A DNA stretch of 43,954 bases from sequence record DRR723986_6320. One strand, written 5' to 3'. A model generated the notes under the pieces. It saw only the letters and a program-made list of their open reading frames with translations, did no database searches and was not told the origin of the DNA. Shown here piece by piece: positions 4,816 to 39,145 of this stretch (position 1 is the stretch's first letter; the number at the start of each line of letters is the position of its first letter). Position numbers and translations under genes: made by a program.

Positions 4816-4924
4816 TTTCTTCCATCCAATAGTATGAGAACCCTTTGGGGCAACCTATCTCCTTATCACCAGGTTGGCAACACGTGAGCAGATCGACCCG
4901 ACAGCTGCTGGAATGCGCGCAGAC

Positions 4925-7900: not shown

Positions 7901-8521
7901 GATGAGCCTGCGGCGGCGGCCCCGTTCCGTATCGACAGCAAGGTCAAGGTCGAGCTGGGCAAGAAGGTCAAGGTTAACGCCCTGGGTTTCGCGAGCCGAC
8001 TGTCAGGCGCCATCACCTTCAGCAACAAGCCGGACCAGGTTGAACTGATCCCCATCGCCGAAGGGCGCCTGGACATCGAGGACGGCACGTTTCGCTCCTT
8101 CGGCCAGGACTTGGATATCGAGACCGGCCAACTGATCTTTGCGGCCGTGCCGGCCACCGAGCCGGAGCTGAACGTACGCGCGGTGCGCTGGATCGATAAC
8201 GACCCGGTGGTAACCGCCGCCGGCGTGCTGGTTACCGGGTCAGTCACTCAGCCGGAGATCGAGATGTTCTCCCGGCCCCAACTGGAAACCAGCCAGATTC
8301 AGTCCTATCTGCTGACCGGGCTCGGCACCGGCGACACGAGTAACGTACTGAGCATCGGCACCTACCTGACGCCAAAGCTGTACGTCGGCTACGGCTACAA
8401 CCTGCTGGAGGGGACCAACGAGTTCAACACCCTGTTCAGTATCACCCCCCGCTATGGGGTGGGCGCCAACGTCGGTGAGGCGGATACCAATGTCAACGTG
8501 ACTATCAGCTATGAGCACTGA
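4925..8521 (+). CDS. tamB: translocation and assembly module subunit TamB (start uncertain: 4874, 4913 or 4925)
   Basis: About 1200 aa; N-terminal TM anchor then SESGTRFV; repetitive beta-rich body; DUF490-like C-terminus (GQDLDIETGQLIF...PELNVRAVR...GTYLTPKLYVGY); overlaps tamA. Confidence 0.88.
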   Translation: MPKPLKLTVIAVGALLFLAAVLLGTLFALISSESGTRFVTGQAGRWTGDLVSWQSLDGTLAGPLEIRGLRLTQPGLELTLDRLALDWQLRALLQRELRITRLQASNGRLLLTDSGETPSTEPFNPANLSSPVDLTLQAVQLRQLDIQQDDQPGQRIDALDLQATLRGDQLEISQLQLRLPQGGVSATGSTALRAQMPLALQASWDGLLPGNAAAASAQARDIPVSGDLGLDGTVNWGEAIRFDLRYRIRADGLEALVTELPATLTLQGIAQGAQQADEVRLQQLTLSLVDPPVSLALQGTLTDISTTNPGFDIALQWQGLRWPLIEVEPTISSDQGELTLAGSTTGYDLALSADLGGATLPAGQWQLRGRGDLQQLDLQQLTAGVLGGELRARGPVSWDPMPRWQLQVEGENLDPAGLVPDVPGQLALALASSGQLDPDTGLAASVDLQRLSGTLLDYALELEASARLAGDTVTLDALKLLSDGNQINANGTLTPEALDLDWTLDASNPGALVPGARGKLTATGRATGSQQAPRILASITGSRLQLNELALAALDADIEAGLDSQDKLAIELVLGPVLSGDQTLAAGARLQVTGSNSQHSLKLALDTASEHLQAELDGGLDLEAASWSGQLSSLALQTDSYGNWRLQEPGTLSLAADAAALGNSCLASEDSTARICLRADRDAVGQSQLSAEIDALPVAMLVADITGDLGGQLRASLAADNSLSADAMLHMTPGDVRVPANEGIKALPHGGGDLKLSVDQKGLVAALAFAAPEDGTIQARVELPQLTSLPPAEQQPLAGRVQASLPRLDSLAAWVPDLAATGGRLNADLQLAGTLSQPELLGELVLTEGRADVPAAGLQLRQIELKAASSVERPGILDIAGSLTSGKGQLTVTGDADISGRAVNLKLQGDRLQVYNTADARASLSPDLQLGWSDDILRLRGTLTIPEAEITPQLQLSSAAAAEDPGAAQAPGQVLSPSPDVVIINAGEEERVDEPAAAAPFRIDSKVKVELGKKVKVNALGFASRLSGAITFSNKPDQVELIPIAEGRLDIEDGTFRSFGQDLDIETGQLIFAAVPATEPELNVRAVRWIDNDPVVTAAGVLVTGSVTQPEIEMFSRPQLETSQIQSYLLTGLGTGDTSNVLSIGTYLTPKLYVGYGYNLLEGTNEFNTLFSITPRYGVGANVGEADTNVNVTISYEH

Positions 8522-10454
8522 TTACTCTGCAAGCGCCCGCCGCGCAGCTGCTCGCAACGCCGGGACAGCACTCGCCTGCACCCTGCTGCTGGCGCTCGTG
8601 CTGGCACCGTTGCCGTCACTGGCCGCGCAGCAGGTGGCAGTCAGGATCAGCGGCCTGTCCGGGGAACCACTGGACAACGTCAGGGCCGCCCTGCGCCTGG
8701 AGCGGCGCCGGCAGGACAGTAATCTGAGCGCCGATACTATCCGCGAGTTGCACGGCAGCGCGGAGCGGGAAATCCGCCGCGCACTTGAACCCTTCGGCTT
8801 TTACCGCCCGGTCATCCGTAGTGAGTTACAGGCACCCAGCGAGGACGGCGGCGCGTGGCGGGCCAGCTACAGCATCGACCCCGGGGCCCAGGTACCGATC
8901 CAGCACTTCGCGCTCAACGTCTCCGGGGAGGGCGGGGAGGATGCCGAGCTCAGCACCCTGACCGCCGACCCGGGCCTGCGCGAGGGCCAGCTTTTCAATC
9001 ACCTGCAGTATGAAGCCAGCAAGCGCGACCTGCTGGCCAGGGTGCGCGGGACGGGTTATCTCGACGCCGCCTATGCCCAACACCGAGTGGAAGTGGACCT
9101 GGAAGCCTACACTGCCAGCATTCTGCTGCAGCTCGATACCGGCCCGAAGTACACCATCGGCCCGATAACTTTCGAACAGGCTGAATTCCAGTTCGCAGCA
9201 GACTACCTGGAGCGCTACCTCATCCTGCACCCCGGCGACACCTTCAGCCAGGCCGCGATCACTCGCCAGCGCAACCTGCTGGGCCGGAGCGGCCATTTCC
9301 GCGAAGTGGTCATCGAAGCGGGTGAACCGGACGACAGGAGCCAGCCGGCCGTGCCGCTGACCATCCGGTTGGCGCCCTACAAGGCCAACCGTTACCGGGG
9401 CCGGCTGGGCTGGGGCTCGGATACCGGCATCGGTGTGCAGGCGGACTGGAACCGGCGCCACATCGGCCATCACGGCCATCGCTTCACCCTCGGTGGAACC
9501 GCAGTGGAGGAACGCAATCGGCTGGCTGGCGATTTCAGCTACCTGATCCCGCTTGAGCCACTGTCCGGCGATCGCCTGGAACTCGCCGCCCGCCACGAGA
9601 GCAAGGACCTGACCTTCGAGGACGTGGACCTGGACGAGGGCGGTGAAACACGGATCGCCACCAACCTGCTGTCCACGTTCTGGCACCTGCCGGTAGCCTC
9701 GATTGGCGATTTCGAGCTGCGCAGCAGAGCCGGCCTGAGCCTGGTCGGGGAAACCTACGATGTCTTCGAGGTACTGTTTGGCAACCTGCCCGGCAATGCC
9801 CAGGATGCCATCATCGCAGCCATCGGCCAGCAGGCCTACGACACCCTGGCACCGGATTTCGAGGCTGTCGTACCCAGCCTGAAGCTGACCGCACGGCGCA
9901 CCGACGACAACCTGTATATCCGTCGCGGCGACTACTTCAATCTTGAGCTGCTGGGCGCGGACGAATCACTGGGCTCCAACATCGACTTCTGGCAGGTTCG
10001 TTTCAACTCCTGGAATATCTGGCCGCTGGGGGACAGCAACCGCTTGCTGCTGCGTTCCGCCGCCGGCTATTCGGACGCGGAAACCCGCAACGTGCTGAGC
10101 GTCGACTTCAACCGTATGCCGGAGTATTTCGAGTTCCGTGCCGGCGGAGCCCGCAGTGTGCGCGGTTATGGCTACGAGGAGCTGTTCCCCTCCACCGCGA
10201 TCACCGGCGGCAAGCACCAGCTGGTCGGCAGCGTGGAGTACGAGCACCAGATCATTCCCAACTGGAGCGCCGCCGTATTCCTCGACGCCGGCAATGCGTT
10301 CAACGACTTCAGCAATATCGACGAGAAACTGGGCACCGGCATCGGCGTGCGCTGGCGCTCACCGGTGGGCGTGGCGCGCATTGATCTCGCCTTCCCGGTA
10401 GATGACTCGGAGGACGCCTTCCAGATTTACATCACCGTGGGTCCGGAGTTCTGA
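8511..10454 (+). CDS. tamA: Omp85-family outer membrane protein TamA
   Basis: Signal peptide, POTRA-like region (ALEPFGFY, TGYLDA), AGGARSVRGY lid motif, GIGVRWRSPVG and terminal ITVGPEF. Confidence 0.9.
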   Translation: MSTDYSASARRAAARNAGTALACTLLLALVLAPLPSLAAQQVAVRISGLSGEPLDNVRAALRLERRRQDSNLSADTIRELHGSAEREIRRALEPFGFYRPVIRSELQAPSEDGGAWRASYSIDPGAQVPIQHFALNVSGEGGEDAELSTLTADPGLREGQLFNHLQYEASKRDLLARVRGTGYLDAAYAQHRVEVDLEAYTASILLQLDTGPKYTIGPITFEQAEFQFAADYLERYLILHPGDTFSQAAITRQRNLLGRSGHFREVVIEAGEPDDRSQPAVPLTIRLAPYKANRYRGRLGWGSDTGIGVQADWNRRHIGHHGHRFTLGGTAVEERNRLAGDFSYLIPLEPLSGDRLELAARHESKDLTFEDVDLDEGGETRIATNLLSTFWHLPVASIGDFELRSRAGLSLVGETYDVFEVLFGNLPGNAQDAIIAAIGQQAYDTLAPDFEAVVPSLKLTARRTDDNLYIRRGDYFNLELLGADESLGSNIDFWQVRFNSWNIWPLGDSNRLLLRSAAGYSDAETRNVLSVDFNRMPEYFEFRAGGARSVRGYGYEELFPSTAITGGKHQLVGSVEYEHQIIPNWSAAVFLDAGNAFNDFSNIDEKLGTGIGVRWRSPVGVARIDLAFPVDDSEDAFQIYITVGPEF

Positions 10455-11088: not shown

Positions 11089-11221
11089 CTATTTCAGCAT
11101 AGCGAAAACGTGTGCACGACGCGCCTGTTGTCTTATACTCGAGGCGTTCGATCCTTGAGCCATACCGGTCGGTGCTGTGAAAACAGCCAGAGCAGAGCCG
11201 CTCCGGTATAGGTCTAAAGCC

Positions 11222-11236
11222 AATAAAAATAAGGAG
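11222..11236 (+). promoter_or_regulatory. A-rich (AAN)n motif abutting the RBS of the TonB-dependent receptor (Hfq/Crc-type site)
   Basis: AATAAAAATAAGGAG immediately upstream of ATG 11243. Confidence 0.4.
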
Positions 11237-11242
11237 ATCGAC

Positions 11243-13528
11243 ATGCCGCAAGCTGCGCGATCAATACCGCGAGTTCTCACCCTTGCCAGCGCAATATCGC
11301 TGCTGGCCACGCCGCTGCAGTCGCAGGCCCAAAGCCTGGTGCTGGAAGAAATCATTGTCACCGCACAGAAGAAGTCGGAGAGCCTCGCTGACACCCCGGT
11401 CACGGTCAACGTGGTCACCGGTGAGCAAATGAATGAATTTGCCAACTTCAGCTTTTTGGACCTGGACAAAATGATGGCAGGCATTTCCGTCACCGGCTCC
11501 AATTACGACACCAATATCGCGGTGCGGGGCCTGGGTACTGACCTCAATGCACCCGTCAGTCCACGGGTGACGGTGTACCTCGACGGCGCTTTCGTGAACC
11601 AGGAGCGCGGCCTGTTCAGCAGCCTGTTCGACCTGCAACGCTTCGAACTGCTGCGCGGCCCCCAGGGTACCCTGTACGGCAAGTCATCACCGGCTGGAGC
11701 ACTCACCATCCAGAGTCGCAACCCGTCGATGGACCGCTTTGATGGCTATATCCAGCAATCCTTCAGTGAACGCAGCGGCAGCAACACCCAGCTCGCCGCA
11801 TCCATCCCGATTGTCGAGGACACCCTCGCACTCCGGGTGGCCGGGCTGTATGACGAGAACCAGGCTGGCGACGTGCGCAACGTCACCCTCGGCCGTGACA
11901 ACGAGAACGAGACCCGGGCCGGACGCGCGGTCCTGTACTGGCAGGCCGGCGACAACCTCGACATTCGCCTGGCCTATCACTACATCAAGGACGAGTTCGA
12001 TATCGACCTGGTGGTTGACGGTAACGGCACGGCCTTCGATGACCGGGTAGCCGTCGGCGACTATCCGTCCGGCATGGAGAACGAAACCAGGATCACCGTG
12101 CTCGAGATGAACTGGGAGCTACCGAACGAGTGGACCCTGAGCACGGTTGCCAGCCACCAGGATAACCAGGTCGACCGGCTGTATGACATCGACGGCTCCG
12201 CGGTGCGCGGCACGGAACAGCAGGTGATCTCCAGCGTGCCCGACGTGCTGAATCTCGAGCTGCGGCTTTCTTCTATTGGCAATTCCTCGCTCTGGGACTG
12301 GACCGCCGGCCTGTACTGGCAGGAATCCGACTCTGTCACGCCGGTATTCAATAACACCTTTATCGCGCCCGTGCCCGGGATCAACGTTGTCGCCGAGACC
12401 ACCGGGCCGGCAGATCTGGAAAGCGAGGACTGGGGCGTATTCCTGCACAATGCGATCCACCTCTCCGAGCGCAGCACGCTAACGGTGGGCCTGCGCTACA
12501 GCGAGGAAAAGAGCACCAGCATTCAGGACTTCACCACCGGGGTGTTCTTCCTGCTGCCGGATGACGAGCGGCAGGGGCCGATCCTGACCCTGGAGTTCCA
12601 GGGCATACAGCCGCAAGACCAGCGCAAAACGGATGACGCCTGGACCGGGACCCTCAAGTACCAGTACAGCGTAAGCGATGACCTGATGGCCTATGGCTCC
12701 TTTGACCGGGGCTGGCGCGCGGGTTCAGCGAATATCTCCGGCGCGGTAAACCCGCCGGTGTTCGGCGCCTTTGAGGCAGAAACCAGCGATAACCTCGAGA
12801 TCGGCTTCAAGTGGTCGGTGCTGGACGGCCGCGGACTGTGGAATACCGCTGCTTACTACCAGCTCTACGAGGATTTCCAGTTCCAGGCCAACACCGTGGA
12901 ATTCAGGGTACCGGAGGATGCCGGCGGTGGCATCGACCTCGCATCCCCGGTTGTGAACGTGGATGAGGTGGAAGTGTTCGGCCTGGAAACGGAATTCTCC
13001 ATCCTGCTGGCGGAGCGCTGGACGGCATCCGTCTCGGCCAGTTACAACCAGGCCGAGTTCAGCGATGCCGGCAACGTGCCCTGCACCACCGGCGGCCCGC
13101 TGCCCGAGGAGGACTTCGGCTTCAACACCTGCGATATTTCGGGTGAGCGCGCTGGCCAGCTGCCGGAGTGGTCCCTGGTGGCGAGCAGTGAATACGCCAT
13201 CCCGCTGGCAGGGGGCGGCACGGAGATTTACCTGCGCGGGCTGTTAAAAACGGAGAGCGAGTCCTACTCCCAGGCCCTGGACCGGGACCTGGACAGCTAC
13301 GTGACCCTGGACGTGTTCGCGGGCTGGCGCAACGCGGCAAGCAGCTGGGATCTGATGGTCTGGGCCAAGAACCTGTTCGATGAATCCGCCTGGCTAGGGG
13401 CATTACCCCTGGAGGAAGTCCCCGACTACACCAACGGTGGCACCCTGGCCAATCCCTACACCCATGTCACCGGCCAATTGCAGCCGCGCACGATAGGTAT
13501 CACCGGCGTCTACCGCTTCGGCGACTAG
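11243..13528 (+). CDS. TonB-dependent receptor
   Basis: Signal peptide, TonB box LEEIIVTAQK, plug motif ELLRGPQGTLYG, KNLFDE and terminal YRF; AAGGAG RBS. Confidence 0.93.
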   Translation: MPQAARSIPRVLTLASAISLLATPLQSQAQSLVLEEIIVTAQKKSESLADTPVTVNVVTGEQMNEFANFSFLDLDKMMAGISVTGSNYDTNIAVRGLGTDLNAPVSPRVTVYLDGAFVNQERGLFSSLFDLQRFELLRGPQGTLYGKSSPAGALTIQSRNPSMDRFDGYIQQSFSERSGSNTQLAASIPIVEDTLALRVAGLYDENQAGDVRNVTLGRDNENETRAGRAVLYWQAGDNLDIRLAYHYIKDEFDIDLVVDGNGTAFDDRVAVGDYPSGMENETRITVLEMNWELPNEWTLSTVASHQDNQVDRLYDIDGSAVRGTEQQVISSVPDVLNLELRLSSIGNSSLWDWTAGLYWQESDSVTPVFNNTFIAPVPGINVVAETTGPADLESEDWGVFLHNAIHLSERSTLTVGLRYSEEKSTSIQDFTTGVFFLLPDDERQGPILTLEFQGIQPQDQRKTDDAWTGTLKYQYSVSDDLMAYGSFDRGWRAGSANISGAVNPPVFGAFEAETSDNLEIGFKWSVLDGRGLWNTAAYYQLYEDFQFQANTVEFRVPEDAGGGIDLASPVVNVDEVEVFGLETEFSILLAERWTASVSASYNQAEFSDAGNVPCTTGGPLPEEDFGFNTCDISGERAGQLPEWSLVASSEYAIPLAGGGTEIYLRGLLKTESESYSQALDRDLDSYVTLDVFAGWRNAASSWDLMVWAKNLFDESAWLGALPLEEVPDYTNGGTLANPYTHVTGQLQPRTIGITGVYRFGD

Positions 13529-13538
13529 GCGGCCGAGC

Positions 13539-13763
13539 TCAATCTTCCAGGGCCTCAATGCGGATCACCCCGTTGGGGCAAAACTTCTCCGCGCGCTGCG
13601 CCAGGGCCAGCTGTGACTCGTCGATGACGTCTTGCAGCGGCTCCACCGTATCGTAAATCTGGCCCTGGTCTGTCACCGCAAACAGAGCCGGCGCTTCCGC
13701 CGCGCAAACCCCGTGACCCTGGCACAGGTCCCGGTCCACGCAGATGCGATACCGCTTACTCAC
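13539..13763 (-). CDS. fdx: single-cluster ferredoxin with CxxHxxC...CP motif (P450 partner)
   Basis: VDRDLCQGHGVC...FCPNGVI; GTGA overlap with the P450 stop codon. Confidence 0.9.
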   Translation of the reverse strand: MSKRYRICVDRDLCQGHGVCAAEAPALFAVTDQGQIYDTVEPLQDVIDESQLALAQRAEKFCPNGVIRIEALED

Positions 13764-15115
13764 TCGACGCGAGCCTGCCGCCGCCGGTAACGCAGCACGC
13801 AGGGATCGGACGGCCGCAGGATCAGGGCCGGCATGATCTCACCGTAGCTTTCCGGGGGCTGGGTCAGTTCGAATTCGTACTCGTGCAGCAGGGTCGAGAG
13901 AATTGCCTTGACCTGCAGGATGGCGAAGGCGTTGCCGATGCATTTGTGGCGACCCCCGCCAAAAGGAATCTCGGCGAACAGGTGACCCGGTGCGGGGCGA
14001 CGTGGGTCGAAGCGCAGGGGCTCCGGAAAATACTCGGGCAGCTTGTGGCTGATGTGGGGACAAACCATCACATTGCAGCCCGCCTCGACCAGGTAATTCT
14101 TGTACTGCCAGTCGTGCATAACCCGGCGCGAAATCGCATTGAGTGGCGGATGCAGGCGCAGCGCCTCGCGAACAAAGCCTTCCAGCAACGGAATATCCCG
14201 CATCCCTTTCAGGGATAACTCCCCCTCGCCTTCAAACAGCGCATCGATCTCCACCAGCAAATCCTCAAGGTATTGCGGGTTGCGGGCGATTTCCAACAAG
14301 GTCCAGGCGGTAGTATTGGAACTGGTGTGGTGGCCGGCGAACATGAACCAGATCACCATCCCGGTGATTTCGTGGTCCGTGAGGTGGCGCCCGTCGCTGT
14401 AGGTCGAGTCCATGTAGACCTGCAGCATATCGTGTTCCCACTGCCCGGATTCCCGGCGCTGCCTGACGCGCTCGGTGATCAGCTCCTCCAGCCGTTTGCG
14501 GGCCATGTCAGTGCGCCGAAAGCGCTCGTCTTCCTTGTAAGGATCGCTGATCGAGGACGGCGCAAGACCGTTCTCCAGGTCGTGATACAGCTCGGCGAAC
14601 TCGTCGGTCAGCTGGTAGCGCAGCTCCCTGCCCAGCAGGCAATGCGTCGAGGTCTTCAGGGTCAGGCGGGTAAAGGCGTCATAGATATCAAACTCGCCCT
14701 CGTCACCCCAGTCAGCGATAAAATCCTGGGCCTCGCGCTCCACCACACCGGCATAATTGACCATGCGATCGTGCTTGAGGCCCTGCACCTGCATTTTCAA
14801 CTGCTGGCGTTCGATATCTGGCGGCGCACCGTACTGGATGCCCTCGCCGAACACCGGCACCATCATCTGATAAGCCTGGGCGGCGCTGAGCTGTTCGTCC
14901 GGGGTACGGAAAAAGGCCTCGTGGGCATCCGGGCCAACCAGCAATATAGTGCGCAGCCCCCCCAGGTTGAATGCCCCGATCTCGCCGCATTCCTCATAGA
15001 CCCGGTGCAGGAACGCCAGTGGCGTGGTGTTGAATTCCTCCAGGTGGCCCGTGCCCGGTTTTGCACCGCTTACCTCGGGTATCGGGTCATAGGCCTGGGC
15101 TGGTTCCTGTGCCAT
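13760..15115 (-). CDS. cyp51: cytochrome P450, CYP51 (sterol 14-alpha-demethylase)-like
   Basis: AYQMMVPVFGEG (CYP51 SRS1-like), I-helix MFAGHHTSS, EALRLHPP, heme motif FGGGRHKCIG; AGGAG RBS. Confidence 0.85.
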   Translation of the reverse strand: MAQEPAQAYDPIPEVSGAKPGTGHLEEFNTTPLAFLHRVYEECGEIGAFNLGGLRTILLVGPDAHEAFFRTPDEQLSAAQAYQMMVPVFGEGIQYGAPPDIERQQLKMQVQGLKHDRMVNYAGVVEREAQDFIADWGDEGEFDIYDAFTRLTLKTSTHCLLGRELRYQLTDEFAELYHDLENGLAPSSISDPYKEDERFRRTDMARKRLEELITERVRQRRESGQWEHDMLQVYMDSTYSDGRHLTDHEITGMVIWFMFAGHHTSSNTTAWTLLEIARNPQYLEDLLVEIDALFEGEGELSLKGMRDIPLLEGFVREALRLHPPLNAISRRVMHDWQYKNYLVEAGCNVMVCPHISHKLPEYFPEPLRFDPRRPAPGHLFAEIPFGGGRHKCIGNAFAILQVKAILSTLLHEYEFELTQPPESYGEIMPALILRPSDPCVLRYRRRQARVE

Positions 15116-15134
15116 TGCTCGCTCCTGGACTCAC

Positions 15135-16451
15135 TCAGTCCGTGTAATCGTAATGATGTTCGGCAAGATCCACCTCCAGCAGCCCGTTCATTCCCACCAG
15201 GTCTGACCAGGGGGACGGGGGTACCGGCTCGTTGCCGTCGTCGATGGTAATCGCAAAAGCCAGGGCAGCGCCGGGAACAGCGGCGGGCTGGACCCGGGCG
15301 CGCGGGTTCACGGCCTGGACGATCTGTTCTAGGCCCCAGGTTTCGCCCCGCCAGAGGCCGGTCAGCAGGCCGGCGGGATCGCCGTCGCCAAGGGCCGCAC
15401 AATCATCGATCAGCAGGTAACCGCTGGTCTCAGTGTCAAGCACACAGCGCGCGCCGACATACTCGGGCACCAGATGGTGGTCGAGTTGCAGCAGCTTGAG
15501 CACGCTGCTCATGGTGTCGCCCTCTATGCCCAGCAGGCGGCGCATGCGCGCATGGTAAACCGGCGCCATGGCCGCGGCGTGTTCCCGCAGGATGTCTCCC
15601 AGTGCCTCCTGGCCGAACTGGCGCTCGATACTCATGTAGCAGGCGCGCTGCAGCAGGTGCACATCGAGCGCAAATTCATACAGCTGGCGGGTCAGGCTTG
15701 CATCCGCCAGGTCTTCCAGACGGAAGTCACGCTTGAACGGGCCTGAATAGTCGCGCAGGCCATCCTCGCCACCCTGGGCGAAGGCGAATTCGAACTGCCC
15801 GGCCCGGCTTTGCCGCACCCGGTCAGTCAGGGCGTTTTCCTCGACCACACCGATACCGTCGGTGATTGAAACCTGCCAGCGGCAAGGTCCTGCTGCGGGA
15901 ATCTCGCCGCCGTGCGGCGGCCGGTAGATCGGCGTACAGCGAGCCCCGGGGTTCACCGCCATTACCGTGGCATCGAAGGTCGGGTCTTCCATATGTACGC
16001 AGATCTGGCGCTCCGCCTCCACATCGCCACCGGTCAGCGCACGCACGTGGTGATATGCACCGCAGAACGGCAACCAGAAAAAGCCGAGATCGTGGGATTG
16101 CACGTCGTAGTGGAACTTGAGCCACATGTGGGGGGCGCCGATGTCCAGCTGGAACCCCTTCATGATCACGTCGACACCGTCACCTTCGATGCCGTGCAGC
16201 AAGCGGTTGCGGCGGTTGTAGACCGGGCTGGCGCCCATCCACTCGTCGATAGCCAGCGCAGTCATCGCCTCGGCACCGAAGCGGGTGTGGATGATCGGCA
16301 TGATGGCCCGGTCGTGGACCTGGTTGCAGAGCATGATTTCCCGGCCCAGGCGGGCACGGGTTTTTTTATCGAGATCGCTCCAGCTGAAATCGGGGCGAAA
16401 GGAACCGGAATAATCCTGCATTGCGCTAATCGGCCAGCGGCCTTTCTCCAT
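15135..16451 (-). CDS. hypothetical protein with two-fold internal repeat (~221 aa period)
   Basis: DYSG..F..DF...DL, GIEGD, K..QLD and AVNP.AR each occur twice; 19 bp upstream of the P450 gene. Confidence 0.8.
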   Translation of the reverse strand: MEKGRWPISAMQDYSGSFRPDFSWSDLDKKTRARLGREIMLCNQVHDRAIMPIIHTRFGAEAMTALAIDEWMGASPVYNRRNRLLHGIEGDGVDVIMKGFQLDIGAPHMWLKFHYDVQSHDLGFFWLPFCGAYHHVRALTGGDVEAERQICVHMEDPTFDATVMAVNPGARCTPIYRPPHGGEIPAAGPCRWQVSITDGIGVVEENALTDRVRQSRAGQFEFAFAQGGEDGLRDYSGPFKRDFRLEDLADASLTRQLYEFALDVHLLQRACYMSIERQFGQEALGDILREHAAAMAPVYHARMRRLLGIEGDTMSSVLKLLQLDHHLVPEYVGARCVLDTETSGYLLIDDCAALGDGDPAGLLTGLWRGETWGLEQIVQAVNPRARVQPAAVPGAALAFAITIDDGNEPVPPSPWSDLVGMNGLLEVDLAEHHYDYTD

Positions 16452-16551
16452 GACTATGCACCGAGATTAGCAGAATGGTCGGTGCGCAGGCGGCGTCCAC
16501 GCCTGAAATATCATACCTGCACCGGGAATCGGCATCGGGGAGGCAGCGAGG

Positions 16552-17505
16552 CTAGTCCAGCGACTGGTGCCCCGGATGCACCTTGCCCTGGGGCAGGGCG
16601 GCAGCCAGTTCTTTCAGCGCAGCGAGACTCACGGCCGAGGTGGGAATATCCGAGGAAAAGGAGCCGGGCTCGACGCCGTTCTCCCAACCCCAGCGGGTAT
16701 GCGTCGCATCGCCGATCATCAGCTGCGGCCCCTCGGTGGTCAGCGCCAGGTAGGCGGTAGAACCCGGGCTATGCCCAGGACTGTGGATGGCATACAGCGA
16801 GCCATCGCCAAAAACATCCACCACACCCTCCTCACCGAACTGCCATTCCCGCAGCAGGCCCTGCACGCCCAGTAAGCGATCGGTGGTGCCGCGGCTGACG
16901 CTGTTCAGCAGCGCTTTCTCCCGCGCATCGCCGGGCCCGATATAAACCGGCACATCCGCGGGCAGATCGGGCAGGCCCATGATGTGGTCGATGTGGATAT
17001 GGGTAAGGAACACACCGGCGACCCCGCCCAGCTCGGTAGCGAGGTCGGCGGTTGTCAGCCTGACCTTGAGCAGCTCGGTTTTCATGGCCATCGCCACAAC
17101 CGCGCCTATGTCCTCATTGCCGGTGGGATTGCGAAACTTACGGGATATCCCGGAATCGACCAGGTAGGTGCCGAAGTCGGGATGGGCCAGGCTGTAAGTG
17201 TAAATATCGATGGGTTCACTGCGATCGACAATGCCCGCCGCGACAGCCTTGGGGTGTTCCAGATTGAGCAAGCCCGACAGCGGCACCTCCCAGGTAGCCG
17301 CCAAATGCCGGGTCAGCGTAATTGGCCCGGACACCGCCGAGCTGCCTTTCAGCATCGCGGCGTGCGTGACAGGCTCGCCCTGAGTCGATGCCGTGGTGGC
17401 CACCGTCGACGCGTCACAGGCGGTAAGCAGCAGCGCCAGCACCGCAGCGGCATATCTCAGGGGATGCGCTGGCCACAACCGGGAAAGCTCCCGGCGCCGA
17501 CTCAC
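16552..17505 (-). CDS. MBL-fold metallo-hydrolase lipoprotein (AHL-lactonase-like)
   Basis: THIHIDH, PGHSPG, IGDA, PGHQ zinc ligands; lipobox LLTAC. Confidence 0.85.
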   Translation of the reverse strand: MSRRRELSRLWPAHPLRYAAAVLALLLTACDASTVATTASTQGEPVTHAAMLKGSSAVSGPITLTRHLAATWEVPLSGLLNLEHPKAVAAGIVDRSEPIDIYTYSLAHPDFGTYLVDSGISRKFRNPTGNEDIGAVVAMAMKTELLKVRLTTADLATELGGVAGVFLTHIHIDHIMGLPDLPADVPVYIGPGDAREKALLNSVSRGTTDRLLGVQGLLREWQFGEEGVVDVFGDGSLYAIHSPGHSPGSTAYLALTTEGPQLMIGDATHTRWGWENGVEPGSFSSDIPTSAVSLAALKELAAALPQGKVHPGHQSLD

Positions 17506-18791
17506 TGTGTGCGCCCGGCGAGCAACTTCTTTTGCAGCCCCATCACCCGTTTGGTCGCGGCAAACACCGACATCCCGGGCTCGGTTTTCCCGGCCACGCC
17601 CAGCTCATCGATCTGGGCATAGAACCAGTACTGAACACCGAAGGTTGCCATGGTCTTGATGGTCTTGATCGCATTAAGGAACGACAGCCAGGGGGGCAGC
17701 AGGGACAGCTCGGACTCATAGCGCGGCAACTCAGCGAGTCCTTCCAGCAATTGCTTGGGCGCATCGGTCATCACGCACATGGGGCGACCCAGGCCGATAA
17801 TATCTGCACTGCCGCTGGCCAGGGCCTGCTCCATCACATCGCGCCGCCGGAAACCGCCGGTTACCATCAACGGGACCTGTACCTTCTCCTGCATGGCCAG
17901 GGCAAAGTCCACAAAGTAAGCCTCGCGCGCGGCGGTGGACTGTTTGACATGCTGCGGCTCTTCCTCTTCCACACCCTCGACACCCAGCAGTTTGGGCTGC
18001 TCGTAGGTGCCGCCGGAGATTTCAATCAGGTCGACGCTGGCAGCTTCCAGCCACTGCACCACCTGCAGGCTGTCCTCGAAGGCAAAGCCGCCTTTCTGGA
18101 AGTCGGCACTGTTGATCTTCACCGACACCGGGAAATCGGGGCCTACCGCGGCGCGCACCGAGGCCACGCATTCCAGCAGGGCCCGGGCCCGGTTTTCCAG
18201 GGAACCGCCGTACTCATCGTCACGCAGGTTGGAGCGCGGGCTGAGAAACTCCGATAGCAGGTAACCGTGGGCCGAATGCACCTGAACCCCGGTGAATCCG
18301 GCTTCCTTGCAGGCGGCAGCGCAAACCCCGAAGCGACGCACAATCTCGGCGATTTCTGCGGTGGTCAATGCCACAGGCTCGCCGAACTGGCCTCCCGGCA
18401 AACCCAGCTTAACCGCTGACGGGGCCTTGGGATGCGGGTTAACCACCTTCTGCACCTGGCGTCCGCCGTGACTGATCTGGGCCCAGAAATGGTTGCCGTT
18501 GCGCGTGGCCGCCTGCGCCCAGCTGGCCAGGGCCTCGCGCATAGCCGCATCCGGCTCCCGGTCGATAACCACGTTACCGGGGCGTTCGAGATGGTCCCGG
18601 TCGATCTGGATATTGCCCGACAGCAGCATGCCGGCACCGCCGTCGCTCCAAATACCATAGAGGCGCTCAAGCTCAGGCGTAGGTAGCCCGTCTGGCGTAG
18701 CAAGGCCCTCGGTCATCGCCGCCTTCGACAGGCGATTGGGCAGGGTGGCGCCACAGGGAAGGGTTAGCGGTTGCGCAAGAGGGCTGGTCAT
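17502..18791 (-). CDS. NADH:flavin oxidoreductase / old yellow enzyme family
   Basis: PNRLSKAAMTE, QISHGGR, VHSAHGYLLSEFLSPRSNLRDDEYGGSLENR; start taken at ATG 18791. Confidence 0.92.
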   Translation of the reverse strand: MTSPLAQPLTLPCGATLPNRLSKAAMTEGLATPDGLPTPELERLYGIWSDGGAGMLLSGNIQIDRDHLERPGNVVIDREPDAAMREALASWAQAATRNGNHFWAQISHGGRQVQKVVNPHPKAPSAVKLGLPGGQFGEPVALTTAEIAEIVRRFGVCAAACKEAGFTGVQVHSAHGYLLSEFLSPRSNLRDDEYGGSLENRARALLECVASVRAAVGPDFPVSVKINSADFQKGGFAFEDSLQVVQWLEAASVDLIEISGGTYEQPKLLGVEGVEEEEPQHVKQSTAAREAYFVDFALAMQEKVQVPLMVTGGFRRRDVMEQALASGSADIIGLGRPMCVMTDAPKQLLEGLAELPRYESELSLLPPWLSFLNAIKTIKTMATFGVQYWFYAQIDELGVAGKTEPGMSVFAATKRVMGLQKKLLAGRTQ

Positions 18792-18896
18792 GGCGGTCTT
18801 CTCATCGGAACATAAGCGCACGATTCTATCGACAAACCGGTGCCGGCGCAGTAATCCCGCCCCTCCAATACCCACGGGGATAGCGATTCCGGCAAA

Positions 18897-18925
18897 TAGA
18901 CCCGATCGACGGCCACGTGTAAACT
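18897..18925 (+). promoter_or_regulatory. putative sigma70 promoter for the ribA-like gene
   Basis: TAGACC-N17-TAAACT. Confidence 0.4.
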
Positions 18926-18967
18926 GCTCGGCCCGTTTACCGGCCAGGACGCGCAAGCACTCACACC

Positions 18968-19783
18968 GTGTTTACCTACCTCAACCCCGATGTACGCGAG
19001 AAACTGATCGATCACGGCAAGCTGCTGCGGATTGATGCACTCGGCAACAAGCTGGATCCGCGCCTGCCGGCCCCGGTCGAAGGTATCGCGCTCAATCTGC
19101 TGGGCCCTATCCCGCTGCCCCTGGGTCGGGGTGAGCGCAAGCCTACCGCGAGCTGGTACGCGGCCGTGCGCAGCACCGAACTCGGCGAAGTAGAGTCCCT
19201 GGCGGGCACCTTGCGTGATAGTGGCGGCCAGCACCTGTTTTCCGTTCTCGCCTCGAGCATGGCAGTCAACAGCGTCCTGGTGATCGGCAACCCGGAAAAG
19301 TCGGCCTCACCCCTGGTACGGGTCCACTCCAGCTGCCTGACCGGCGATGTATTCGGCTCCCGACGCTGTGAGTGCGGCCCCCAACTGGAGGCTGCCCTGG
19401 ACCGGATTGCCGATGACCCCCAGGGCGGCTACCTGGTCTACATGGCGGGCCACGAGGGCCGCGGTATTGGCCTGTGGGCCAAGGCTGCTACCTATCTGCT
19501 GCAGGATGAAGGCGAGGACACTTACCAGGCCAACCGCTCACTGGGGCTGCCGGATGACTCCCGGGATTTCAGCGATGCCGCCGCCCTGCTCCACTATTTC
19601 GTTGGCAAGCGGCCGATTCGCCTGCTCACCAACAACCCCAAGAAGATCGCCGACCTGAGTGAATTCGGGCTGGGTGAGATCACCGCGGTCAAACACGTAA
19701 CTGGCGTGGATGACTGCAACCGACGTTACCTGGAAGCCAAGCGCGACTGGGGCCACCGCATCGGTGAGGACGACCTCGATTGA
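18968..19783 (+). CDS. ribA: GTP cyclohydrolase II (RibA) with N-terminal extension
   Basis: VRVHSSCLTGDVFGSRRCECG zinc site, HEGRGIGL, DSRDF, LLTNNPKK, YLEAK..WGH. Confidence 0.85.
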   Translation: MFTYLNPDVREKLIDHGKLLRIDALGNKLDPRLPAPVEGIALNLLGPIPLPLGRGERKPTASWYAAVRSTELGEVESLAGTLRDSGGQHLFSVLASSMAVNSVLVIGNPEKSASPLVRVHSSCLTGDVFGSRRCECGPQLEAALDRIADDPQGGYLVYMAGHEGRGIGLWAKAATYLLQDEGEDTYQANRSLGLPDDSRDFSDAAALLHYFVGKRPIRLLTNNPKKIADLSEFGLGEITAVKHVTGVDDCNRRYLEAKRDWGHRIGEDDLD

Positions 19784-19867: not shown

Positions 19868-20392
19868 ATGACACCGGCCGACAGGGAACACAAAAAAATG
19901 GGCATGACCATGCAGGTCCTGGCCTGGGTAGTGTTCATGGGCCTGCTGGGTTTCTACTTTACCGATCTGCTGGAAGACCAGCACAACCCGAATCGATCTC
20001 TGGAAACCCGCTATACCGACGGTGTGCGTGAGGTGGTCCTGCAGCGCAACAAGTTCGGCCACTACGTCACCAGCGGCGAGATCAACGGCCAGCCCGTGGT
20101 CTTCATGCTCGACACCGGGGCCACCGGCGTCGCCCTGCCGGCGGCTATCGCCGAGCGGATAGGCGTTCCCCGGGGCCGGGCAATCAATACCCAGACCGCC
20201 AACGGCGTGGCGACCAGCTACCTGGCAAGCCTGGCTAGTGTGAAAGTCGGCGATATCGAACTGAACGATGTAGCGGCGGGTATTACCCCCGGCCTGAGAA
20301 CGGAAGAAGTCTTACTCGGGATGTCTTTCCTGCGCCACATCGAGTTCAGCCAGCGCGGTGACACCCTGATCCTGCGCCAGTACCCGGGCTAA
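19868..20392 (+). CDS. membrane-anchored clan AA (retropepsin-like) aspartic protease, TIGR02281-type
   Basis: N-terminal TM, GHY...G.ING, FMLDTGAT, TANG, LLGMSFL. Confidence 0.9.
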   Translation: MTPADREHKKMGMTMQVLAWVVFMGLLGFYFTDLLEDQHNPNRSLETRYTDGVREVVLQRNKFGHYVTSGEINGQPVVFMLDTGATGVALPAAIAERIGVPRGRAINTQTANGVATSYLASLASVKVGDIELNDVAAGITPGLRTEEVLLGMSFLRHIEFSQRGDTLILRQYPG

Positions 20393-37275: not shown

Positions 37276-38610
37276 TCAGTCGGCAACCCAGTTACCGTGA
37301 AAGCCATAGGGCACTCGCGTCGGCAGGTGTATCGTGGCAACCGGCCCGGCACTGAAATCCTGCGCTTCGATAATCACCACATCGCTTCGGTCGGTCTCCT
37401 TGTCGTAGACATAGGCCATGATCCAGCCGTCATCTTCGGCCGCATCCGGGGTCCGCGGGACAAACACGGGCTCGAGGAAAATGCGTGACGGGCCCTCGCC
37501 GTGTACCTCGGAACTGCCACGCAGCAGGTCGTACTTGCGGATTCCGCCCATCGCATTGAACTCGGGCAGGTCGGCCGTGTAGCCGTAGCGATAGGGCTTG
37601 CCGGTCAGGCGCTCGTCCAGCCGCGGGAATTCCTGAGGACTGTCATCAATGCGCTGCTCATGAACAGTGGTCTTGCCGCGGTCGATCGTCCATCGGTCCA
37701 GCGTGGAAATGCCATCACCGGGGCCGCGCATATCCTGGTCAAACATCCGCGCATGGCGCACAACATCCATGACCACCCTGCCCTGCTCGTCTTCATAGGC
37801 ATTCATCGGGTGAAACACGTAACACGGCTCTACCTCGTGCCAGGTGACCTGCTCCGCCGTTCCCTCGCGGGGCAACAGACCGACCCGGGCGCCGTATTCC
37901 GGGTGCCATTTGTAGGGAAAGACGTACCCGGCCTCGGCCACCGCCGGATCGAGGATCACCGGCAAATCGAGCACAATGAAGTAATTCCGGGTAATCATGC
38001 AGTCGTGGATCATTGGTTGGCCCGGCAAAGGCACATCCAAGGTTTTCCGGACGCGACCGCTCTTGTCGATGACCACGTACTGCACATGGTGCCACAGGGG
38101 CGAGTAGGCGGCGGCGTGCAGTTCGCCGCTATCCGGGTCGCGGTGCGGGTGCGCAGATAGCCCGCCAGGCAAAGTGCCGTCGAAATCGGTGCGGCCGACC
38201 GTCTCCAGGTTGAGGTCCACTTCCACCGGCAGGTTCCCTGCCTCAACAAGGGTCAGGATCTTGCCCGCGTGTTCCATCACATTGGTATTGGAGACACCCT
38301 CGCCGAGCTGGAGAGCACCCACCGGGCCGGCAACCGGCGGCCAGTTTTTTGCCGCGACCACGCGATCATCGCGCACATAGCGACTGCGATACGAGTCCGC
38401 CCTGCCCTCGCGCAGACGCAGGCCGTGAACCATTCCGCTGCCCAGGAACCAGTGGTGCACGGCAGGGTCAGGATCGATTGGGTTAGGGCCGATTCGCAGT
38501 AACCGACCATTCAGGCCTGGCGGGATTTCCCCGGTTACCGGTAAATCAACGGCCGTCTGCTCATCATCCAGCGGAGCAAAATTACCGGACAGGTAGGGAT
38601 TTTCGGACAT
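37276..38610 (-). CDS. carotenoid cleavage oxygenase family (RPE65/CCD/LSD) protein
   Basis: NPYLSGNFAP, four Fe-binding His (SAHP, MIHD, VFHP, GFHGNW), EFPR, EPVF, EDDGW; GGAGG RBS. Confidence 0.92.
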   Translation of the reverse strand: MSENPYLSGNFAPLDDEQTAVDLPVTGEIPPGLNGRLLRIGPNPIDPDPAVHHWFLGSGMVHGLRLREGRADSYRSRYVRDDRVVAAKNWPPVAGPVGALQLGEGVSNTNVMEHAGKILTLVEAGNLPVEVDLNLETVGRTDFDGTLPGGLSAHPHRDPDSGELHAAAYSPLWHHVQYVVIDKSGRVRKTLDVPLPGQPMIHDCMITRNYFIVLDLPVILDPAVAEAGYVFPYKWHPEYGARVGLLPREGTAEQVTWHEVEPCYVFHPMNAYEDEQGRVVMDVVRHARMFDQDMRGPGDGISTLDRWTIDRGKTTVHEQRIDDSPQEFPRLDERLTGKPYRYGYTADLPEFNAMGGIRKYDLLRGSSEVHGEGPSRIFLEPVFVPRTPDAAEDDGWIMAYVYDKETDRSDVVIIEAQDFSAGPVATIHLPTRVPYGFHGNWVAD

Positions 38611-38752
38611 CACGGCCTCCTGGCGCCTTGGGCACGACCGGGTGGCCCGTGCTGTCCGAAGTATAGCGGCTGCCCGGCAAGCGGGCCCTGCCGGGCGCGA
38701 TCATGCCGCCAGCCCCGGTGTGCTCCCGGTGCTTAACGCCCGGACGGGAGGA

Positions 38753-39111: not shown

Positions 39112-39145
39112 TTGCAAAAGTTTATTTTTGGGAAAATAATCCCAA
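39112..39145 (+). promoter_or_regulatory. promoter and overlapping palindromic operator of the DUF6502-like gene
   Basis: TTGCAA(39112)-N17-AATAAT(39135-39140); TTGGGA-N6-TCCCAA at 39128-39145; AT-rich element upstream. Confidence 0.55.

Follow-up and report, generated by a model that had tools for sequence, protein, structure and literature searches.

The DNA stretch analysed here (the window; 43,954 nt, record DRR723986_6320) contains, in the locus treated at positions 11,243 to 18,791, a run of five minus strand genes that converges on a plus strand gene for a TonB-dependent receptor (TBDR). The first gene in the run encodes an FMN oxidoreductase of the Old-Yellow-Enzyme family (OYE, 17502..18791; 429 amino acids from the ATG at 18791), and it is followed by genes for a 317 amino acid lactonase-like MBL-fold metallo-hydrolase (MBL, 16552..17505), a 438 amino acid protein of no described family (UNK, 15135..16451), a 451 amino acid P450 of the CYP51 family (13760..15115) and a 74 amino acid single-cluster ferredoxin (Fdx, 13539..13763). 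The OYE stop overlaps the MBL start and the P450 stop overlaps the Fdx start, by four bases in each case; within the run the largest gap, of 100 bases, separates MBL from UNK, UNK and P450 are 19 bases apart, and Fdx lies 10 bases from the TBDR stop. The TBDR gene (11243..13528) sits in an open reading frame (11177-13528) that opens with a GTG at 11177, but the likely start is the ATG at 11243, from which the N-terminus reads like a signal peptide. These six genes with their overlaps and gaps are as given in a preliminary description of the locus, and its family calls also hold, since the TBDR, Fdx, P450, MBL and OYE proteins all have matching Pfam domains. The 176 bases between OYE and a divergent ribA-like gene (18792..18967) are, from their position, the likely promoter region of the run; a search there turned up no consensus sigma-70 site. 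A scan for consensus promoters and terminators gave nothing above shuffled controls, so the operon structure is read from gene spacing. For comparison, 60 related loci were examined by tblastn and ORF clusters were built over 54 loci; many of these are related MAGs, and the counts below are not counts of independent events.

CYP51 enzymes strip the 14α-methyl group from sterols of the lanosterol/obtusifoliol type. Judged by its sequence, the P450 belongs to the CYP51 family and has a ferredoxin of its own: it matches Pfam p450, and the best 57 structure matches listed in a PDB sequence search are all CYP51s, headed by that of Methylococcus capsulatus (E = 1.2e-121) and including those of Mycobacterium tuberculosis (1.7e-109) and human (1e-82), which bears out the earlier CYP51 call. 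Its nearest relative, at 94% identity, carries the JGI family name "sterol 14-demethylase". The window shares the P450 family (E of 1e-121 and 1e-109), a soluble enzyme and a single-cluster ferredoxin directly downstream with the M. capsulatus CYP51fx fusion and M. tuberculosis Rv0764c/Rv0763c, whereas its P450 belongs to a separate Halieaceae subgroup about 44% identical to M. capsulatus CYP51 (a hand count of the alignment midline). The AGHHTS I-helix motif, the heme cysteine loop and signature residues Y82, P87, F89 and G90 are kept, and no membrane anchor is visible in the sequence. The usual B'C-loop motif is departed from: the B'-helix "phylum-marker" residues are M84 and Y95, Met84 occupies the substrate-discriminating site, and after the Tyr G96, invariant across 26 close relatives, replaces the Asp of other CYP51s. 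The Fdx protein matches Fer4_15 (2.5e-11) and Fer4_13 (5.2e-7), has in its translation the cysteine pattern C-x2-H-x2-C ... C-P, and probably serves the P450 as redox partner. In 13 related loci CYP51 has a ferredoxin beside it or fused to it; such pairing is described in the available text of PMC7947880 and PMC13277303, the latter reporting it for a distinct bacterial CYP51 clade.

UNK has no Pfam, NCBIfam or PDB sequence match; a homologue search returned more than 1179 sequences. Internally it consists of a domain of about 215 amino acids duplicated in tandem (identity between the halves is 30% across 168 aligned residues, E = 4e-17), so the "duplicated unknown" of the preliminary description was an apt label. 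Residues C130, C151, C190, E155 and D156, all in the first half, are invariant across 41 sequences. An AF2 model (pLDDT 90.2, pTM 0.91) gave no Foldseek match at E ≤ 0.001 and only weak ones beyond it (E ≥ 0.047, probability up to 0.99, TM 0.4-0.5). The best, and the sole recurring, matches of the two halves are V4R/4VR sensor domains (MopR, PoxR, DmpR), Bet3 and H-NOX, all ligand-binding and with pockets for small hydrophobic ligands, at TM 0.41-0.51, E 0.047 or worse and no sequence similarity; each half of the model weakly resembles ligand-binding domains of the V4R/Bet3/H-NOX type. MopR-type domains hold a Cys/Glu zinc site, with which the three invariant cysteines and invariant Glu and Asp of the UNK N-terminal half can be compared. 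Unlike these sensors, UNK has two tandem domains, is without a DNA-binding or ATPase module, and sits in enzyme operons.

The conserved core of the neighbourhood is UNK plus CYP51, and UNK is the most conserved CYP51 neighbour in the lineage. Of the 60 loci, 21 have CYP51 no more than 10 kb away from UNK; among the 23 loci with some 10 kb of sequence to either side, the number is 13. A P450 gene stands right next to UNK in 12/54. By our own arithmetic, chance linkage would be below 1/60, taking at most three copies in a 4.2-Mb genome (the length of the L032 chromosome). In the UNK clade to which the window belongs (support 100/100), 14 out of 18 rows show the CYP51 linkage; the other UNK clades are mostly not near it, with none of nine rows in the Litorivivens clade and one of 15 in a second Halieaceae clade. 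It occurs with varied gene orders in Halieaceae, Myxococcota and one Spirochaetaceae MAG, and in L044 CYP51, Fdx, NTF2, CMD and UNK follow one another on one strand with gaps of 11-12 bases. A ferredoxin, a TetR gene (within three genes of UNK in 13/54 loci) and sometimes a TonB-dependent receptor accompany the core. A link between UNK and CYP51 was not found in the literature searched, and the pairing is not part of the Methylococcus and Mycobacterium clusters as far as the descriptions consulted go.

The preliminary description had treated all five genes and the receptor as one candidate module. The comparison did not support such a unit: the full gene set does not recur across the 60 related loci, and the exact gene order of the window was found in none of them. 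A less probable though still substantial alternative is that two or three unrelated units lie side by side, namely an UNK-CYP51-Fdx unit, a separate OYE-MBL operon (e.g., for lactone or quorum-signal hydrolysis plus an ene-reductase) and a receptor that imports something else. MBL points that way, being without homologues in any of the 60 loci and so specific to the window among those compared. It matches Pfam Lactamase_B (1.3e-9), its top PDB hit is an N-acylhomoserine lactonase (4.5e-10), the atlas places it in clusters named "MBL fold" and "putative AttM" (scores 0.97-0.98), and it reaches 46.9 bits against the NCBIfam AttM lactonase model, whose cut-off is 390. Its translation has an H-x-H-x-D-H motif and an N-terminus ending in LLLTAC, which presumably fits the lipobox consensus, so that MBL reads as a lipoprotein-type, exported protein among others that read as cytoplasmic. 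OYE (Pfam Oxidored_FMN, 1.3e-48) has as its best PDB match 7fev ("FMN binding", 1.2e-63), matches 2,4-dienoyl-CoA reductase at 2.6e-30, and reaches no NCBIfam equivalog cut-off. Its short form likewise has no close relative in the 60 loci, the only relatives being a longer OYE-FAD form of 27-32% identity in 5/60 loci by tblastn and 6/54 by ORF clusters; that form, however, stands immediately beside UNK in 4/54 loci and in an operon with CYP51-Fdx in L001 and L032, which argues against separate units. In the window OYE and MBL belong to the cluster only by co-orientation and one four base overlap, and the wide MBL-UNK gap would suit a division there, but no terminator- or promoter-like signal lies between the genes (in a scan with nothing above shuffled controls overall).

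The receptor has Plug (1.7e-15) and TonB_dep_Rec_b-barrel (6.1e-38) domains and matches only generic NCBIfam subfamily models below threshold, with no equivalog at cut-off. Receptors of this class import scarce large substrates and are numerous in the window's bacterial family, and therefore some adjacency to UNK is expected by chance. Its opposite strand, and the fact that only 4/54 loci have a TonB-dependent receptor of any kind directly next to UNK, are in keeping with an unconnected receptor; against this, receptors 51-52% identical to it directly adjoin UNK in L037 (convergently) and L058 (on the same strand). EdcT, which ends the estrogen cluster of Novosphingobium (Caenibius) tardaugens and is tied to steroid uptake in the portion of PMC7793797 available, is a published precedent for this receptor class; its likeness to the window TBDR is one of class and of position at the end of a steroid-processing cluster.

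CYP51 with a co-localised ferredoxin, as in the window, also forms a trio with the reductase 8,14-Bsr that, according to the available part of Lee, Giner and Welander (2026, PMC13277303), is found in sterol degraders rather than makers. In relatives of the window a 160-186 amino acid NTF2/SnoaL-type protein beside CYP51-Fdx has a Tyr/Asp spacing like that of the published catalytic residues, and it is a putative 8,14-Bsr by this spacing, a SnoaL_4 match (2.4e-7) and its position; it adjoins CYP51-Fdx in nine related loci. The window has no 8,14-Bsr homologue (best tblastn E = 0.23) and has an OYE-family reductase and UNK instead. Halieaceae CYP51s fall into three paralogue groups, and two or three paralogues lie within about 10 kb in L007, L017 and L032. 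Subgroup B retains the customary F-D in its B'C loop and is accompanied by ferredoxin and the NTF2 gene, whereas subgroup A, which includes the window P450 and is otherwise 76-80% identical to it, has Y-G at that site and Met at the substrate-discriminating position and is mostly without an adjacent ferredoxin. Because of Gly96, Met84 and the fact that genomes of relatives each have two or three CYP51 paralogues, the substrate may not be a 14-methyl sterol. Subgroup A CYP51 and UNK might then be a neofunctionalised pair acting on another triterpenoid, a polycyclic lipid or another steroid position, with "sterol 14-demethylase" a family name only; the invariance of G96 in close relatives and the missing 8,14-Bsr homologue would agree with this, and new CYP51 functions in non-producers are suggested in PMC7947880 (in its available text), which cites the oat CYP51 of avenacin synthesis. 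We nevertheless consider it unlikely. The signature residues, the AGHHTS motif and the heme loop are all retained, Met is a rare but natural variant at the M. capsulatus I81 position and either Tyr or Phe occurs at F92 (same source), a subgroup A CYP51 likewise adjoins an NTF2 paralogue in L032, and the neighbours in relatives (3β-HSD-like and cholesterol oxidase genes) have a sterol flavour.

That company is best seen in L013 (Parahaliea aestuarii), where UNK and CYP51-Fdx lie amid ChsH2-type, KshA_C/Rieske, 3β-HSD-like, SDR, aldehyde dehydrogenase, SnoaL, TetR and KstD-like genes, as in the clusters for aerobic 9,10-seco steroid catabolism of Proteobacteria and Actinobacteria, together with an FA_hydroxylase gene (sterol desaturase/methyl-oxidase superfamily). 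In relatives, the matches of KstD-like, SdmB-like and Rv0768-like type all fall short of the NCBIfam equivalog cut-offs, the L013 KstD-like protein scoring 585 bits against a 3-ketosteroid-Δ1-dehydrogenase cut-off of 789. A gene for a VAO-type cholesterol oxidase (PF09129, 2.3e-134) stands directly beside UNK in four loci and within three genes of it in five, all of them Litorivivens/Spongiibacteraceae; MaoC, acyl-CoA ligase, acyl-CoA dehydrogenase and enoyl-CoA hydratase genes also occur in related loci. The window, by comparison, has none of the steroid-ring or side-chain catabolic genes and no TetR gene. We know of no nuclear demethylation step in the characterised cholesterol pathway.

It is very improbable that CYP51-Fdx instead serves as the third post-squalene step of de novo sterol synthesis, with genes elsewhere for squalene monooxygenase and oxidosqualene cyclase. 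The window gives a view of only 44 kb of the genome, and the 3β-HSD/SdmB-like and FA_hydroxylase-family genes of relatives could equally serve C-4 demethylation; moreover, an adjacent or fused CYP51-ferredoxin is also present in the sterol producer M. capsulatus (PMC7947880 and PMC13277303, as far as their text was available). However, in agreement with the preliminary description, no squalene epoxidase or oxidosqualene cyclase was matched among the 37 window ORFs scanned (picked from 79 of at least 140 amino acids as non-overlapping likely genes), nor was either present among the 37 cluster representatives and 167 further related-locus ORFs annotated. The neighbouring TetR, CoA ligase, hydratase and KstD-/KshA-like genes in relatives are typical of catabolism, more than 1000 bacteria, Halieaceae among them, are listed as having CYP51 and most of these are not sterol makers (PMC7947880), and Halieaceae and Spongiibacteraceae isolates grow on cholesterol according to the available text of PMC5790920. 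The catabolic reading is thus favoured over the biosynthetic one.

The import and catabolic processing of sterols that the preliminary description proposed keeps its support from CYP51 with its Fdx, the catabolic neighbours in relatives and the receptors near UNK in L037 and L058, while the gene set as a unit does not. Its remark that no characterised pathway has this gene set needs qualifying, since parts of the idea are already in print: Halieaceae CYP51s are listed in PMC7947880, and the available part of PMC13277303 proposes that sterol degraders act on exogenous lanosterol via CYP51 and 8,14-Bsr.

The reading that we prefer, to which we give somewhat less than even chances, is a soluble CYP51-Fdx-UNK system that acts on an imported, not self-made, sterol or related tetracyclic triterpenoid. 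CYP51s are known to take off the 14α-methyl group oxidatively, releasing it as formate, and the P450 reaction would most likely be 14α-demethylation of sterols of the lanosterol, cycloartenol or obtusifoliol type, readying these 14-methyl sterols either to be remodelled or to enter the steroid catabolism that is known from the bacterial family. The convergent TBDR would be the probable outer-membrane entry route. UNK, as a cytoplasmic tandem of two V4R/Bet3-like domains for small hydrophobic ligands, may bind the water-insoluble substrate or product and pass it to or from the soluble P450; alternatively, it may have an enzymatic role. OYE and the putative periplasmic lactonase-like lipoprotein MBL would be lineage-specific additions of uncertain role, of which OYE might reduce a double bond that the pathway creates or exposes. 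This marine gammaproteobacterium thus most likely processes sterols from outside the cell rather than making them.

Five closely spaced genes on the minus strand converge on a sixth on the plus strand. The OYE-family FMN oxidoreductase gene (17502-18791, ATG at 18791) has a stop that overlaps by 4 bases the start of a gene for an MBL-fold protein (16552-17505); a 100-base gap separates the latter from the gene for UNK, a 438-amino-acid protein (15135-16451), which is followed after 19 bases by a P450 gene (13760-15115) and, with a 4-base overlap, by the gene of a 74-amino-acid ferredoxin (13539-13763). Ten bases lie between the ferredoxin stop and that of the convergent plus-strand TonB-dependent receptor gene (ORF 11177-13528, likely start 11243). 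The coordinates and spacings in the preliminary description of these six genes are all correct, and its gene families are borne out by Pfam with the exception of UNK, which is without a match. A scan of the window for consensus promoters and terminators gave one promoter-like and six terminator-like sites against 2.0 and 5.0 expected from shuffled sequence; this is no better than shuffled sequence, so it is from spacing only that we infer the OYE-MBL-UNK-P450-ferredoxin run to be an operon. Divergent from the OYE gene, with 176 bases between, is a ribA-like gene for GTP cyclohydrolase II (18968-19783, plus strand; NCBIfam PRK00393, 174.6 bits, cut-off 148) whose product carries some 100 additional amino acids at its N-terminus, a riboflavin-pathway gene beside that of an FMN-dependent flavoenzyme, and just past it is a gene for a 174-amino-acid retropepsin-like aspartyl protease (19868-20392, plus strand; gag-asp_proteas 7.5e-26). 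Elsewhere in the window are a TamB-TamA translocation-and-assembly pair (4874-10454, plus strand, ORFs overlapping by 11 bases), a carotenoid-cleavage-oxygenase-family gene for an isoprenoid-lipid enzyme 18 kb from the cluster (37276-38613, minus strand; RPE65, E 1.6e-119), and a DUF6502 gene followed by two tandem paralogues of about 560-590 amino acids with three DUF5666 repeats each (39112-43542, plus strand).

The P450 matches Pfam p450 over residues 22-427 (9e-65), and its heme-thiolate loop, F-G-G-G-R-H-K-C-I-G, is kept in 26 of 26 aligned relatives. Among solved structures it comes closest to CYP51 from Methylococcus capsulatus (E 1.2e-121), next to that from Mycobacterium tuberculosis (1.7e-109), and then to human and protozoan CYP51s; the top 57 of the PDB matches listed all belong to CYP51, and non-CYP51 P450s begin at 1e-31. 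The family-level rule of P450 nomenclature is 40% identity. The window protein shares about 44% identity with CYP51 of M. capsulatus, as counted by hand along the alignment midline, and this value, together with the top listed PDB matches, upholds its original assignment to CYP51. It also fits the 42-45% listed for CYP51s from two Halieaceae (PMC7947880, Table 1). The I-helix motif A-G-H-H-T-S at residues 260-265, five of whose six positions are invariant with A260 at least 90% conserved (alignment A2), is present in every CYP51-like row aligned from the related loci, and the His-Thr-Ser/Thr triad of this helix is described as serving proton delivery (PMC7947880). In the B'C-loop the window enzyme keeps Y82, P87, F89, G90 and Y95, and has Ile93 for Val and Gly96 for Asp. 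The CYP51 signature of substrate contact in this B' helix/B'C-loop region is Y-x-x-hydrophobic-x-x-P-x-F-G-x-x-V-x-F/Y-D. Both Ile93 and Gly96 are conserved within the window's CYP51 subgroup, and the latter is Asp in the other CYP51s aligned. The "phylum-marker" positions, I81 and F92 in M. capsulatus, are Met84 and Tyr95 here, both natural variants (PMC7947880). The adjoining ferredoxin has the single-cluster pattern C-x2-H-x2-C ... C-P, and the cluster contains no ferredoxin reductase gene. As in the CYP51-ferredoxin-8,14-Bsr clade (PMC13277303), the window CYP51 is co-localised with its own ferredoxin, through the 4-base overlap; unlike that clade, the window has no gene for an NTF2-family 8,14-sterol reductase (8,14-Bsr), as tblastn of its 43,954 bases with six NTF2/SnoaL-type proteins from related loci gave a best E of 0.23.

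The receptor has the Pfam Plug and TonB_dep_Rec_b-barrel domains and reaches the cut-off of no substrate-specific NCBIfam model; EdcT is an earlier example of a TonB-dependent receptor linked to the uptake of steroids (PMC7793797). The MBL protein has an H-x-H-x-D-H metal motif in its translation, a Lactamase_B match of 1.3e-9, a best PDB match to an AHL lactonase (4.5e-10) and 46.9 bits to NCBIfam AttM (cut-off 390), and we file it as a putative lactonase-like MBL-fold hydrolase. The OYE matches Pfam Oxidored_FMN at 1.3e-48 over profile positions 3-339 of 342 as well as many OYE structures, which places it in the Old Yellow Enzyme family, with its FMN-binding TIM barrel.

UNK is indeed the duplicated protein that it was first said to be, a true tandem duplication whose halves share 30% identity across 168 residues (E 4e-17). 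A set of 5.8 billion proteins contains more than 1179 homologues, the best 67% identical, and the UNK profile has 785 matches at E ≤ 0.001 among 1.84 billion representatives. UNK has no NCBIfam match, its profile finds only bromodomain noise (E at least 0.1) among PDB sequences, and a Pfam search with the family at E ≤ 10 gives DUF6125 in 4 of 24 members, at E of at least 0.044, the remainder being noise. An Atlas feature search returns unnamed Actinomycetota clusters (0.93-0.94) and, as weak leads, ATC_hydrolase (0.86) and DUF6125 (0.85); a literature search on DUF6125 found nothing. The AlphaFold2 model is confident (pLDDT 90.2, pTM 0.91) and finds nothing in PDB at E ≤ 0.001 by Foldseek, the best values being E 0.047 for the whole protein (target TM 0.42-0.52) and E 0.054, with probability 0.99, for the N-half alone (TM 0.41-0.51). 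MopR-type domains carry a Cys/Glu zinc site. The modelled halves may resemble the phenol-sensor domains of MopR, PoxR and DmpR, the TRAPP subunit Bet3 and H-NOX, which recur among the weak matches, each to one half of UNK; these domains all bind small hydrophobic ligands. In the first half, C130, C151, C190, E155 and D156 do not vary across 41 homologues; the second half keeps only the first of the three cysteines. The possibility that UNK is the conserved hypothetical gene in the cyp51 operon of M. tuberculosis was considered and dropped, because that slot is most likely an NTF2-family 8,14-Bsr and UNK has a different fold; the M. tuberculosis homologue of 8,14-Bsr is active (PMC13277303). 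We note that four predicted proteins (P0268, P0278, P0322 and P0290) join a UNK part to an HIBDH-like domain, a P450 C-terminus, TetR or a glycosyltransferase; these could be genuine fusions or the result of merged gene calls on metagenome contigs, and because of the latter possibility they are left out of the fusion evidence.

A UNK-anchored search, with one genome per species, supplied 60 related loci from Halieaceae, Litorivivens/Spongiibacteraceae, Myxococcota, Binatia and single MAGs of other phyla. CYP51, defined here by at least 38% identity in a match of at least half-length, lies within 10 kb of UNK in 21 of the 60, and in 13 of the 23 in which about 10 kb is present on both sides, counts that overstate the number of independent events since many loci are from related MAGs. 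A further locus outside the UNK filter (L058) carries both genes too, and a P450 directly adjoins UNK in 12/54 loci. CYP51 linkage is found in 14 of 18 rows of the window's own UNK clade (support 100/100), in 1 of 15 of a second Halieaceae clade and in none of the nine of the Litorivivens clade. The gene order varies: Haliea-type loci have divergent TetR-CYP51 and UNK, locus L009 has CYP51-ferredoxin-TetR-UNK-receptor on one strand, a Myxococcota MAG (L044) has CYP51-ferredoxin-NTF2-CMD-UNK with gaps of 11-12 bases, and in a Spirochaetaceae MAG (L031) a CYP51-ferredoxin fusion adjoins UNK. A receptor 51-52% identical to that of the window adjoins UNK in L037 (convergent) and L058 (same strand); any TonB-dependent receptor is directly beside UNK in 4/54 loci and anywhere in the locus in 10/54. 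The OYE relatives are all of a longer OYE-FAD form, 27-32% identical, present in 5/60 loci by tblastn or 6/54 by ORF clustering, directly beside UNK in 4/54, and in one operon with CYP51-ferredoxin in L001 and L032. No homologue of the MBL protein occurs in any of the 60 loci. The idea that the six window genes form a conserved module thus fails, their exact order being found in no related locus; what survives of the expected neighbourhood conservation is the linkage of UNK and CYP51. On these counts the conserved unit is UNK with CYP51, accompanied by ferredoxin, TetR and sometimes a receptor, and OYE and MBL are lineage-specific additions. We also note a small CMD (AhpD-like) protein directly upstream of UNK in 5/54 loci and within three genes in 7 (CMD-UNK loci are L016, L018-L024, L044, L043, L054, L056 and L032), often preceded by SDR, Rv0768-type aldehyde dehydrogenase and HIBDH-like genes, a set that may resemble the one around the cyp51 operon of M. 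tuberculosis (Rv0768-Rv0771).

Several groups can be told apart among the CYP51-like genes of the related loci, with differences at the B'C-loop Phe/Tyr and the residue after it. Group A, to which the window enzyme belongs, is 76-80% identical to it, has Y-G and lies beside UNK, usually without ferredoxin; group A' (54-57%) also has Y-G and group B (50-52%) the usual F-D, both with ferredoxin; a Myxococcota/Spirochaete group (39-43%) has F-D and a ferredoxin, fused in L031. Groups A and B occur within 10 kb of each other in L007, L017 and L032, the last with two UNK paralogues. Adjoining the group B and Myxococcota/Spirochaete genes is a protein of 160-186 amino acids with a SnoaL_4 match (2.4e-7) and a Tyr/Asp spacing like that of Y37, Y43, Y78, Y80, D133 and D136 of 8,14-sterol reductase (PMC13277303), and by this spacing and its position it is taken to be a putative 8,14-sterol reductase. 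Both L032 (1-19700, Halioglobus sp. chromosome OZ244998.1) and L058 contain a "supercluster" of two CYP51 and two UNK paralogues (the latter 30% and 46% identical to window UNK), two NTF2-family 8,14-Bsr-like genes, ferredoxin, 3β-HSD-like, MaoC, OYE-FAD, TetR, luciferase-like, acyl-CoA-ligase, SDR, aldehyde dehydrogenase, CMD and FA_hydroxylase genes. The natural fusion of L031 (8142-9968) is a 608-amino-acid ORF with p450 and Fer4_13/Fer4_15 domains, next to an 8,14-Bsr-like gene and TetR, with UNK divergent and a 3β-HSD-like gene after.

Oxidosqualene cyclase and squalene epoxidase domains are, as first reported, absent from the window (37 ORFs scanned), and none is present in 37 cluster representatives and 167 further ORFs of the related loci. 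Unlike 9,10-seco steroid catabolism clusters, the window has no KstD, KshA/B, Hsa or side-chain β-oxidation genes among the same 37 ORFs, and no TetR; KstD-like, KshA_C and ChsH2 genes are found in relatives only. The Parahaliea aestuarii locus (L013) has UNK and CYP51-ferredoxin amid ChsH2 domains, a KshA_C/Rieske oxygenase, a 3β-HSD-family gene, SnoaL, TetR, an ecdysteroid-kinase-like protein, four luciferase-like oxidoreductases, a KstD-like flavoprotein (585 bits, cut-off 789) and an Rv0768-type aldehyde dehydrogenase (694 bits, cut-off 775). In Litorivivens loci a VAO-type cholesterol oxidase gene (PF09129, 2.3e-134) adjoins UNK, and acyl-CoA ligase, dehydrogenase, hydratase and MaoC genes recur in related loci. 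The genomic company of UNK-CYP51 in relatives is catabolic. Cholesterol supports the growth of isolates of Halieaceae and Spongiibacteraceae, two families to which genes of the 9,10-seco pathway are assigned (PMC5790920). The 3β-HSD-like neighbour was also considered as an SdmB equivalog, an assignment that is unsupported (73-87 bits, cut-off 600, with the HpnA model scoring higher). Haliea-type loci (L007, at 11300-13489, L002, L004, L006, L010, L012, L014, L017, L048 and L057) have, about 10 bases after UNK on the same strand, a gene for a 729-amino-acid molybdopterin oxidoreductase, followed by an SDR gene; among NCBIfam models the oxidoreductase scores highest with formate dehydrogenase alpha (212 bits, cut-off 666), and the window has no such formate-dehydrogenase-like gene. 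Because CYP51 releases the methyl carbon as formate, it is conceivable, as speculation, that this enzyme consumes it.

Our overall reading of the cluster, held tentatively and at slightly less than even likelihood, is one of receptor uptake, sterol demethylation by CYP51 and ferredoxin, handling by UNK and auxiliary roles for OYE and MBL. A sterol-type substrate would cross the outer membrane, probably via the adjacent receptor. Ferredoxin supplies electrons to CYP51-family enzymes in the cytoplasm, and there that of the window would pass them to the window CYP51, which would take off the 14α-methyl group or, less likely, oxidise another position. UNK may bind the insoluble substrate or product and hand it on, or may catalyse a step of its own at the conserved Cys/Glu/Asp site, roles proposed from fold resemblance, conservation and linkage. 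More speculatively, OYE might reduce a double bond, and the exported MBL hydrolase might act ahead of uptake to open an ester or a lactone. We regard as unlikely a joint reading in which UNK is a new class of sterol-handling protein, a chaperone or metal-dependent enzyme that soluble bacterial CYP51s would need to act on exogenous sterols, and Halieaceae have a catabolic "nuclear demethylation" route. Along with CYP51 paralogues, ferredoxin and UNK, this route would use either the NTF2 reductase or an OYE, enzymes of the 3β-HSD-like and FA_hydroxylase types, and a TonB-dependent receptor of its own to strip 14- and 4-methyl groups from lanosterol-/cycloartenol-type triterpenoids of algae and invertebrates, which would then enter ordinary steroid degradation; the exported lactonase-like lipoprotein of the window would extend it to lanostane-type lactones or esters.

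The preliminary description knew of no characterised pathway with these genes. Part of the set is in print: the CYP51-ferredoxin pair is described, the list of CYP51-bearing bacteria includes Halioglobus japonicus, Parahaliea mediterranea and Spongiibacter (PMC7947880), and sterol degraders are proposed to apply CYP51 and 8,14-Bsr to exogenous lanosterol (PMC13277303, in whose text the terms "Halie" and "Cellvibrionales" are absent). The UNK family and its linkage to CYP51 were not found in the main texts searched, whose supplementary synteny may show UNK unnamed; nor did these texts turn up a receptor subfamily next to UNK, Halieaceae CYP51s in multiple paralogue groups with the Y-G variant, or the OYE/MBL combination of the window.

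The role of CYP51 in bacteria that make no sterols has been a question since the M. tuberculosis enzyme was described, and more than 1000 CYP51-bearing bacteria are now listed, most of them non-producers (PMC7947880). The window and its relatives add a UNK family that follows CYP51 through three or more phyla, a marine steroid-degrader family with two or three CYP51 paralogue groups, and a receptor subfamily abutting UNK, a concrete and testable handle on why non-producers keep the enzyme. Some relatives that are not pathogens are in culture (Parahaliea aestuarii, P. mediterranea and Litorivivens lipolytica), so the question can be tested directly. If the catabolic reading is true, 14-methyl sterols would be a carbon source for marine bacteria by a route not yet described, with a bearing on the preservation of sterol biomarkers and on enzymes for steroid biotechnology.
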